DNA of 64,000 nucleotides from an uncultured Bacilli bacterium (lineage in GTDB: Bacteria > Bacillota_I > Bacilli_A > RF39 > UBA660). The notes under the pieces are model-generated. The model saw only the letters and a list, made by a program, of their open reading frames with translations, did no database searches and was not told where the DNA came from. The stretch covers positions 3,888 to 67,887 of the forward strand of contig CALVRU010000001.1 in assembly GCA_944358775.1 (NCBI GenBank), read 5' to 3'. The translations under genes were made by a program, and so were the position numbers. Below, piece after piece: positions 49,992 to 51,585 of this stretch (within the stretch, counting starts at the first letter, position 1; each line of letters starts with the position of its first letter).

Positions 49992-50714
49992 TTAAGCAGC
50001 AGCATCTTTGGCATTAACATTGATCTTAATAGAGAATGTTTTACCATTGGTACCACGGACAGTTTTTGATGAATCAACTTCACCTTCAGCATCACAAGAT
50101 ACTGGAGCATTTGCGGTAGTGAAACATTTATCATCTTTCATTTCAACTGGAGCGCCATCTGAATCTGTTTCAGCCATCCACATTCTTAAACGGTATGTAG
50201 TAGTAACTGCTGAACCACTTGAATTCGTTGCACTTCCAGTTCCAAGTAGTTTATCTCCTGTAGCAATTGTTCCAGCTGTTAAATCATCATAATGAGTAGC
50301 AGCTTTTACTGGAGTTTCACGTCCTCCATCTACTTTGTCTAAACTAACTTTTACGTATTTACTTTCCAATGTACCAATGTCTGATTGATCCGTAGATTCT
50401 TTTGCAGTAATTTCATAATTAATCGTAGCATTACCATTAATTGTCGAAGTTACTGTAAAATCAAATACATTTCTTCCTGAAGTCAATGTTGTTTTTGCAT
50501 CTTCATCGCTCATTGGTACAGCATTTTCCAAAAGAATACCATTGTTTGGTTCATTATAACTGAATACTAATGTACCAGTTGTAATTGTGTTAACCGTTTC
50601 TCCTTGCTTACTATAAGTGAAGAACGCAAAAGATACTCCTACTACAGCTACAACCAAAATAGCAACGGCTAAGACAGAAAGTAATACTTGCTTTGATGAA
50701 CTTTTTTTCTCCAT
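49992..50714 (-). CDS. secreted protein, SipW-cognate signal peptide (VGVSFAFFTYSKQGE), tandem paralog B (240 aa)
   Basis: About 93% identical to paralog A at the protein level. Own promoter TTGCAA-17-TACGAT, TAAGGAGGA RBS and terminator. Confidence 0.8.
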   Translation of the reverse strand: MEKKSSSKQVLLSVLAVAILVVAVVGVSFAFFTYSKQGETVNTITTGTLVFSYNEPNNGILLENAVPMSDEDAKTTLTSGRNVFDFTVTSTINGNATINYEITAKESTDQSDIGTLESKYVKVSLDKVDGGRETPVKAATHYDDLTAGTIATGDKLLGTGSATNSSGSAVTTTYRLRMWMAETDSDGAPVEMKDDKCFTTANAPVSCDAEGEVDSSKTVRGTNGKTFSIKINVNAKDAAA

Positions 50715-50740
50715 GATTTCCTATCCTCCTTACGATAATA

Positions 50741-50769
50741 ATCGTATCAAACAACTTTTAAAATTGCAA
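50741..50769 (-). promoter_or_regulatory. promoter of paralog B (TTGCAA, 17 nt, TACGAT)
   Basis: Minus strand ttgcaattttaaaagttgtttgatacgat, then taaggagga RBS. Confidence 0.5.
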
Positions 50770-50823
50770 CCCTTTTTATAAAATTGCATTTATTTTACAT
50801 TCATCCATTTACAAATGAAATAA

Positions 50824-50853
50824 ATAAAAAAAAGAAGTTCTTTCTAGAACTTC
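50824..50853 (-). terminator. rho-independent terminator of paralog A
   Basis: Minus-strand gaagttctagaaagaacttc followed by tttttttt. Confidence 0.75.
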
Positions 50854-50862
50854 CTTTAAAAA

Positions 50863-51585
50863 CTAAGCAGCAGCATCTTTGGCATTAACATTGATCTTAA
50901 TAGAGAATGTTTTACCATTCGTACCACGGACAGTTTTTGATGGATCAACTTGTTCTTCTTGATCGCAAGATACTGGAGCATTTGCCGTAGTGAAACATTT
51001 ATCATCTTTCATTTCAACTGGTGTTCCATCGGCATCTTGTTCAGCCATCCACATTCTTAAACGATATGTAGTAGTAACTGGTGAACCACTTGAATTCGTT
51101 GCACTTCCAGTTCCAAGTAGTTTATCTCCTGTAGCAATTGTTCCAGCTGTTAAATCATCATAATGAGTAGCAGCTTTTACTGGAGTTTCACGTCCTCCAT
51201 CTACTTTGTCTAAACTAACTTTTACGTATTTACTTTCCAATGTACCAATGTCTGATTGATCCGTAGATTCTTTTGCAGTAATTTCATAATTAATCGTAGC
51301 ATTACCATTAATTGTCGAAGTTACTGTAAAATCAAATACGTTTCTTCCAGATACTAATGTTGTTTTTGCATCACTATCACTCATTGGTACAGCATCTTCC
51401 AAAAGAATACCATTTGCTGGTTCATTATAACTGAATACTAATGTACCAGTTGTAATCGTGTTAACCGTTTCTCCTTGTTTACTGTAAGTGAAGAATGCAA
51501 AAGAGACTCCTACTACAGCAACAACTAAAATAGCGACTGCTAAAACTGAAAGCAATACTTGTTTAGATGAATTTTTTCTTTCCAT
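50863..51585 (-). CDS. secreted protein, SipW-cognate signal peptide, tandem paralog A (240 aa)
   Basis: MERKNSSKQVLLSVLAVAILVVAVVGVSFAFFTYSKQGE. Thr/Gly/Asp-rich mature region with 2 Cys. Own promoter, RBS and terminator. Confidence 0.8.
   Translation of the reverse strand: MERKNSSKQVLLSVLAVAILVVAVVGVSFAFFTYSKQGETVNTITTGTLVFSYNEPANGILLEDAVPMSDSDAKTTLVSGRNVFDFTVTSTINGNATINYEITAKESTDQSDIGTLESKYVKVSLDKVDGGRETPVKAATHYDDLTAGTIATGDKLLGTGSATNSSGSPVTTTYRLRMWMAEQDADGTPVEMKDDKCFTTANAPVSCDQEEQVDPSKTVRGTNGKTFSIKINVNAKDAAA

Follow-up and report, generated by a model that had tools for sequence, protein, structure and literature searches.

Introduction

TasA polymerises by insertion of residues 28-38 of one subunit into the next, and TapA may supply the first strand (PMC9674648). 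BsaA is remotely similar to TasA, its donor strand is disordered in monomer models, and its paralogues often share an operon (PMC11580942). The operons of archaeal bundling pili hold four-transmembrane and single-transmembrane proteins of unknown role (PMC9245690). In this study, a window of 64,000 nucleotides (nt) from an uncultured Bacilli bacterium (GenBank assembly GCA_944358775.1, contig CALVRU010000001.1, positions 3,888 to 67,887) was analysed which contains two nearly identical tandem genes, here called U (upstream) and D (downstream), ahead of a sipW operon. An extracellular fibre or matrix scaffold is probably built with U and D as its major and very highly expressed subunit genes, and it would depend on the SipW-type peptidase of the cluster. 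By analogy, the system is best described as a database-invisible variant of the SipW-dependent TasA/BsaA-like fibre systems.

Comparison with described systems

As in the TasA/CalY system (PF12389; tapA-sipW-tasA; fibre structure 8AUR), the cluster includes a dedicated SipW-type peptidase. The major proteins resemble TasA in a conserved signal peptide ending in x-A↓ and followed by aromatic residues, in an N-terminal segment that can be aligned to the donor strand, the following G-T-L strand and an N..P..D motif, in a beta-sandwich subunit of about 21-25 kDa, and in an invariant Trp of the penultimate strand (YRLRMW versus EATQW, in a low-confidence alignment). A minor paralogue with a similar N-terminus is comparable to TapA. 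In contrast to TasA, PF12389 is not matched, the core cannot be aligned by sequence and Foldseek fails to retrieve TasA. Furthermore, the major genes are monocistronic and lie in tandem arrays outside the sipW operon, upstream of it. Two additional conserved membrane proteins are present, and each minor component is a paralogue of the major subunit instead of having a TapA-type fold.

The BsaA/BsaB system of Clostridium perfringens (sipW-bsaA-bsaB-bsaC; PMC11580942) shares with this locus the remote similarity to TasA, the SipW linkage, several paralogues per operon, a disordered N-terminal strand in models of the monomer, and the absence of LPXTG. BsaA oligomers are membrane-anchored (PMC11580942), which would be a further likeness. 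Set against the published description of BsaA, the isopeptide triad N35-E56-K74 is not conserved here, and neither a vWA protein nor type IV pilus genes are located nearby. Among 114 sequences of the family, N42 is conserved in 113 and E55 in 104, position 122 is occupied by Lys in 86 and Arg in 22, and K74 is found in 75. Since no Lys column is invariant, an isopeptide lock of the BsaA type was rejected as an unlikely feature of the family.

A beta-sandwich completed by donor-strand complementation, which is proposed here, is also known from the archaeal bundling pili AbpA/AbpB (PMC9245690) and the chaperone-usher pilins FimG and CupB6. The four-transmembrane and single-transmembrane proteins of the bundling-pilus operon loosely resemble the two membrane proteins of our cluster. 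FimG together with its FimF donor strand was the top Foldseek match, with weak scores shared by all best matches (E ~1e-3, template modelling (TM) score 0.26-0.37). Unlike the FimG and CupB6 systems, the locus includes no chaperone or usher, and unlike the hosts of all these pili, its host is a Gram-positive member of the Bacilli.

The first-pass annotation had likened the organisation of U and D to that typical of major structural subunits and had named pilins, flagellins and S-layer proteins among the examples. A role as major secreted structural subunit is supported by the SipW neighbour, the conserved N-terminal signal and strand, the all-beta model and the tandem arrays. The families named are not, as neither a flagellin, an S-layer anchoring domain, an LPXTG sorting signal nor a type IV prepilin motif was found in U or D. 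SipW substrates of the TasA/BsaA type are the better analogy.

The gene pair and a putative fibre subunit

The two open reading frames (ORFs) are arranged head to tail on the minus strand, exactly at the positions first annotated (Table 1). They are near-identical tandem paralogues, with 226 of 240 residues identical in a gap-free BLASTP alignment (94%) and 672 of 723 nt (92.9%, 51 differences) at the DNA level. The repeat unit spans ~806 nt at a period of 871 nt (49976-50782 versus 50847-51652) and extends from 16 nt beyond the stop codon to ~65 nt 5' of the ATG. The alignment of U and D also reproduced the patches of differences and the two C-terminal Cys residues described before. C197 and C207, a possible disulfide pair, are present in both copies and are conserved wherever the insertion 188-218 occurs; this insertion is clade-specific and found in ~20% of the family.

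The N-terminus of the major protein reads M-E-K-K-S-S-S-K-Q-V-L-L, and the C-terminus ends in KINVNAKDAAA. The signal peptide predicted for U comprises residues 1-30 with cleavage at VSFA↓FF, resulting in an acidic mature form of 210 amino acids (aa; 22.4 kDa, isoelectric point 4.6). In the family, the N-terminal ~45 residues are near-invariant (consensus ..SKQVLLSVLGIAILVVAVVGVSFAFFTYSKxGxxxNxITTG..) and the remainder is 25-50% identical. The peptidase gene is located 850 bp downstream of the major pair. Its product scored 111.9 bits with TIGR02228 (cut-off 51.85), and its best PDB sequence matches were SEC11A/C.

For the comparison with TasA, the Bacillus subtilis sequence was verified against 8AUR, and 30 TasA-family sequences were aligned. 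In hhalign, residues 8-68 aligned with residues 5-63 of TasA (probability 5-11%, E 0.003-0.008); a deeper alignment with greedy settings resulted in a probability of 49% and E 1.8e-4. A hidden Markov model of TasA searched against the family reached E 4e-4 at best, in the N-terminus only. The segment ..GGGTWA↓AFNDIKSKDATFASGTLDL..NLSNLKPGD of TasA aligns with ..VGVSFA↓FFTYSKQGETVNTITTGTLVF..LLENAVPMSD of the family, so that WA↓AFND..FASGTLDL..NLSNLKPGD is placed opposite FA↓FFTY..ITTGTLVF..LLENAVPMSD. The TasA cleavage site A27↓A28 is in register with A30↓F31, and the aligned part of TasA comprises the signal peptide, the donor strand and the first strand.

The AlphaFold2 model of D is an all-beta sandwich with a predicted local distance difference test (pLDDT) score of 80 for the full-length protein. 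The mature form reached pLDDT 84.7 and a predicted TM-score of 0.80, with residues 1-19 below pLDDT 50 in the monomer. Apart from FimG, the best Foldseek matches were CupB6 and jelly rolls, and carbohydrate-binding modules such as CBM6 were also matched.

Taken as a fibre subunit, the pre-proteins would be exported by Sec and cleaved by SipW after VSFA30. By analogy to TasA, BsaA and the archaeal bundling pili, the freed near-invariant N-terminus (FFTYSKQGETVNTITTGTLVF) would then serve as a donor beta-strand completing the beta-sandwich of the next subunit, and the acidic 22-kDa subunits would polymerise into fibres. The third and fourth paralogues of the cluster, which contain the same strand motif, may nucleate the fibre, anchor it in the membrane, or both. 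U and D are each read as a sigma-A-type transcription unit of their own. Gene conversion between them keeps the core identical, and a small number of patches in loops and insertions are reshuffled from strain to strain.

Several results weigh against this proposal. U, D and the third paralogue had no Pfam or NCBIfam match at E<=1, including the PF12389/TasA models. Foldseek searches of the PDB with the full-length and the mature model gave no match with E<1e-3 or TM>0.4, and TasA, AbpA and other TasA-like structures were outside the top 50 matches. The profile similarity to TasA is marginal and limited to the first ~60 residues. Moreover, the major-gene arrays of many relatives have no sipW within 8 kb. 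Because the TasA similarity is marginal and confined to the N-terminus, we did not file the major proteins in PF12389, a domain carried by all 120 listed TasA homologues; the NCBIfam scan also reported no TIGR04088 match for the cluster proteins. We conclude only that the major proteins share a gene context and, as it appears, a SipW-cognate N-terminal module with the TasA/BsaA world. The best reading of this link is a functional analogy, short of proven membership.

Among the alternatives, an S-layer-like or other non-filamentous coat or secreted protein (e.g. a lectin or an adhesin monomer), duplicated for dosage and with SipW merely as its peptidase, is unlikely but fares best. The very high predicted expression, the acidic 22-kDa beta-sandwich and the CBM6-type Foldseek matches would be in line with it. 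However, no SLH, CWB2, LysM or LPXTG anchoring element was found by the Pfam and NCBIfam scans or at the C-terminus, and the co-operonic minor paralogues share the strand motif. Also, the first ~15 mature residues are near-invariant and yet unplaced in the monomer model (pLDDT<50), which is hard to explain for a monomeric coat.

A role as spore-associated proteins, either coat or appendage, seems improbable. It is suggested by the location among yabG, spoVG, spoVT and yabP/yabQ and by the name 'spore coat-associated protein N', under which TasA was originally described and which PDB and NCBI use for it. Yet these neighbours belong to a conserved Firmicutes housekeeping block into which the cluster is inserted, and the codon bias of U and D resembles that of vegetative translation genes. 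Judged by the consensus sequences of sigma-A and of sigma-E/K promoters, the promoters of both genes look sigma-A-like (TTGACA-type -35, extended -10) and not sigma-E/K-like.

The least credible alternative is a type IV-pilin- or archaellin-like protein that keeps a hydrophobic N-terminal helix as filament core and exposes a variable beta domain: an N-terminus that is hydrophobic and invariant, combined with a globular part that varies, is a hallmark of type IV pilins, and the sole PDB sequence match of the family profile was the N-terminal helix of the archaeal 'DUF973' chain 8tib, which we take to be a type IV pilin (E 4.9, not significant), but TasA-family signal peptides are similarly conserved, SSK-QVLL instead of a G↓F-x-x-x-E or [KR]-[GAS]↓ prepilin motif precedes the helix, a canonical S-F-A↓ type I cleavage site follows it, the peptidase of the cluster is a dedicated type I enzyme (SipW) and not PilD/FlaK, and no pilus ATPase or platform gene (nor any sortase or flagellar gene) was recognised among the ORF translations of 38-64 kb, which were read by eye without a Pfam scan.

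Gene conversion between the two copies

The clustering of differences between U and D had been ascribed to diversifying selection or gene conversion. Our data support the latter. None of the 51 nt differences falls within nt 247-504 of the coding sequence, and a gap of that length was obtained in 0 of 100,000 random placements (P<1e-5); we regard this tract as a recent conversion tract. Among the 11 strains with both copies, the 5' third displays 26 fixed U-versus-D differences and hardly any shared polymorphism. In the centre, 0-1 fixed differences and 4 shared polymorphisms were counted, and nt 504-600 have 0-1 fixed differences and 10 shared polymorphisms. A U-type block at 504-600 is found in D of three related loci (L035, L037, L038) and a D-type 3'-end in U of another (L040). 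Four blocks occur in many combinations among 50 protein alleles. Recurrent, bidirectional gene conversion with variable tract ends is thus strongly supported by the sequence comparison as the origin of the patchy differences. The 5' third may escape conversion because homology stops ~65 nt 5' of the ATG.

Metagenome contigs may mix strains, and single-gene contigs among the 50 alleles could be chimeric. In two-copy contigs, the 3' half next to the intergenic spacer can only be that of U, and mosaics in this part are therefore not phasing errors.

Diversifying selection, in contrast, was not supported. The ratio of nonsynonymous to synonymous divergence (dN/dS) between U and D is 0.20 for the whole comparison and reaches 0.35-0.38 within the variable patches, values that argue against positive selection at the level of segments. 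Residue 57 in the NEP-x-NGI loop (50544-50546 in D, 51415-51417 in U) is the sole multi-allelic site among the 50 population alleles and has six states (A, E, T, N, D and Q). It is a possible target of selection.

Expression signals and codon adaptation

The promoters of U and D were read directly from the sequence, and the distance from TAAGGAGGA to the ATG is 5-6 nt in both copies. A generic promoter scan did not pick their TTGCAw-type hexamers. For U it proposed TTGACG-18-TATTGT, which would place the transcription start within the ribosome-binding site. In five distant loci (L001, L002, L007, L010, L013) the homologous genes are preceded, with equal spacing, by TTGAC-17-(TG)TATAAT, a leader of ~20 nt and ATAAGGAGG, and a terminator precedes each of these genes. 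The conservation of the same layout in five distant loci supports the promoters as originally read.

Terminator-like hairpins followed by at least 8 U were identified downstream of both genes (z ~ -2.9); the one after D was missed by the scan. A promoter, a ribosome-binding site and a terminator of its own can thus be read for each copy, as had been proposed, although the terminators, described as strong, have AT-rich stems and are plausible intrinsic terminators only.

The codon adaptation index was calculated with EF-Tu, EF-G and six genes for ribosomal proteins, all from this window, as the reference. U (0.80) and D (0.77) rank at the top of 47 genes, on a par with EF-Tu, and non-reference genes range from 0.49 to 0.71. 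This supports the very high predicted expression and, together with the signals of each gene, the earlier view of two separate high-expression units.

A perfect 23-bp tandem repeat (TCTAAATTATCGAAAAATAAAAA x2) at 51647-51692, located behind the 3D-domain gene terminator and ahead of the -35 element of U, occurs only once in the window. The exact double copy is kept in 8 strain loci, and a role as UP element or as binding site of a regulator is conceivable.

Authenticity and age of the duplication

The same two-gene arrangement was found on 10 further independent contigs, 11 in total, which derive from other samples and assemblers and carry differing allele combinations. The gene order metG-tatD-3D-domain gene-U-D-minor paralogue-sipW-...-ksgA-yabG-veg-spoVG is conserved. 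These 11 independent two-copy contigs rule out an assembly-collapse artefact, and the duplication, for which such an artefact had been considered, is real. Several short contigs (L029, L031, L032) end ~300 nt into the second copy, within the tract identical in U and D, which is the behaviour expected of a true repeat. The repeat fragments short-read assemblies, and copies may be under-counted in metagenome-assembled genomes. A megablast search against plasmids had zero matches, and there is thus no sign of a mobile origin.

In four distant loci (L006, L007, L010, L016), two major genes at the same place are flanked by the 3D-domain gene and spoVG, and the sipW cassette is missing. First copies are 44-70% and second copies 48-72% identical to each other across these genomes, and first versus second copies 30-47%. 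First and second copies are therefore position-specific orthologues in these relatives, and the two-gene state is old. In the clade of the window and in L001, paralogues instead cluster by genome (94% and 57-65% identity). Judged by these identities, the copies in the species of the window have been either re-duplicated or homogenised.

In two ~30% identical relatives, the pair (L007 8001-9510, L010 7998-9614) occupies the same position (metG-tatD-3D gene-pair-spoVG-yabP-yabQ). At this site, ksgA, yabG and veg are absent as well as the sipW cassette.

A large protein family of gut Bacilli

Homologues of the major proteins form 915 clusters at 90% identity. A profile search at E<=1e-3 retrieved 4,829 clusters (50% identity); 436 of them had E<=1e-30. 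As a source name, only 'hypothetical protein [Bacilli bacterium]' was given. Every named source is either an uncultured gut member of the Bacilli or a contig that is presumably mis-binned, and the samples came from rabbit, Hadza human, chicken and rumen. The genome-contig scan did not recover the species of the window itself and found relatives of at most 53% identity. The family profile had no significant match among PDB sequences, and a literature search on the major-subunit family or on SipW-cognate signals in gut bacteria found nothing specific.

Family members were also found in a Bacteroides helcogenes bin (L019), and the full sipW cassette in a Muribaculaceae bin (L015). These Bacteroidota bins most likely result from mis-binning because the neighbouring genes are of Firmicute type.

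Tandem arrays of 2-6 genes are the usual arrangement in the family. Long members of 620-877 aa (P0186, P0181, P0243, P0170) combine the same N-terminal module with C-terminal Big_2, cadherin-like or F5/8-type-C (discoidin) domains. In Pfam scans of ten long members, only such C-terminal adhesin-type domains were matched. As part of the same filament system, the long members may serve as adhesins at its tips.

The duplication itself is ordinary. The valuable parts are the size and obscurity of the family, its organisation in arrays and the well-resolved conversion tracts. It is tempting, if rather doubtful, to view this very large uncurated family as defining a class of its own among SipW-processed surface filaments, present in uncultured gut Bacilli. 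All subunits would have a single invariant N-terminal assembly module in common, and arrays of 2-6 differently decorated genes, reshuffled by conversion, would vary the exposed surface as a defence from phage or immunoglobulin A, or would change adhesion specificity, with long members contributing lectin- or Ig-like tips.

If U and D do build fibres, an entire clade of uncultured gut Bacilli, known from human, rabbit, chicken and rumen metagenomes, would express these more highly than any other surface structure. The fibres would be invisible to present domain databases and would provide a handle on adhesion and biofilm formation. Donor-strand fibres of the SipW/TasA type would then include a new family of subunits that comes with accessory membrane proteins of its own. 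The two tandem structural genes would also provide a clean natural case of concerted evolution with strain-resolved conversion tracts. The family and the conserved cassette of minor paralogue, sipW, distant paralogue and two membrane proteins deserve a curated model.

The gene cluster and its chromosomal context

The third paralogue, minor C, has a promoter of its own (TTGTTT-17-TG-n-TATCAT) and is a candidate nucleator or minor subunit. When the eight proteins of the cluster were scanned against Pfam and NCBIfam, matches were limited to SipW and the 3D-domain protein on the flank. The 231-aa and 157-166-aa proteins had no Pfam, NCBIfam or PDB match, and searches of the 231-aa protein (E231) and the distant paralogue (D208) against PDB sequences matched nothing. 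Both membrane proteins are candidate assembly or anchoring factors. The complete cassette recurs beside major-gene arrays in two other loci (L002, L015). There, the two membrane-protein genes also directly follow sipW (L002 11299-12485, L015 12218-13349).

Table 1. Features of the U/D locus, with positions in the 64,000-nt window, and divergence of U and D by codon segment (dS, synonymous divergence)
Feature	Position	Strand	Remarks
U, upstream major-subunit gene	50863-51585	minus	ORF, 240 aa
D, downstream major-subunit gene	49992-50714	minus	ORF, 240 aa
U promoter	51611-51639	minus	-35 TTGCAT 51639-51634, 17-nt spacer, TG-n-TAAGAT, -10 at 51616-51611
D promoter	50741-50769	minus	-35 TTGCAA 50769-50764, 17-nt spacer, TG-n-TACGAT, -10 at 50746-50741
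U ribosome-binding site TAAGGAGGA	51594-51602	minus	
D ribosome-binding site TAAGGAGGA	50724-50732	minus	identical to that of U
Terminator-like hairpin and U-run after U	50822-50857 (hairpin 50857-50830)	minus	-12.4 kcal/mol
Terminator-like hairpin and U-run after D	49944-49988 (hairpin ~49988-49952)	minus	-11.5 kcal/mol; AT-rich stem
Identical tract	D 50211-50468 (coding nt 247-504) = U 51082-51339	minus	258 nt; putative recent gene-conversion tract
Segment of U versus D	codons 1-56		dS 0.52; dN/dS 0.03
Segment of U versus D	codons 57-82		dS 0.43; dN/dS 0.35
Segment of U versus D	codons 83-168		dS 0; dN/dS not defined
Segment of U versus D	codons 169-215		dS 0.28; dN/dS 0.38
Minor C, third paralogue	49166-49846	minus	226 aa from MEQNNEQ; 37-42% identical to U/D
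SipW, archaeal-ER-type signal peptidase I	48526-49140	minus	SNSMEP, THRV and GDNN boxes
Fourth, distant paralogue	47934-48560	minus	196-208 aa, transmembrane-anchored; shares VPMSDEDG and Y.L..W.SE motifs
231-aa protein	47236-47931	minus	one N-terminal transmembrane segment; kept beside sipW
157-166-aa protein	46761-47261	minus	several hydrophobic segments; kept beside sipW
Terminator closing the cluster	46778-46751	minus	

The cluster is inserted in the conserved Firmicutes housekeeping block metG-tatD-yabE...ksgA-yabG-veg-spoVG. Two RNA leaders of the window reached Rfam gathering scores, a T-box leader at 55027-55233 upstream of metG and an L10 leader at 23090-23205 upstream of rplJ. Both are ordinary and confirm the Firmicute chromosomal context.

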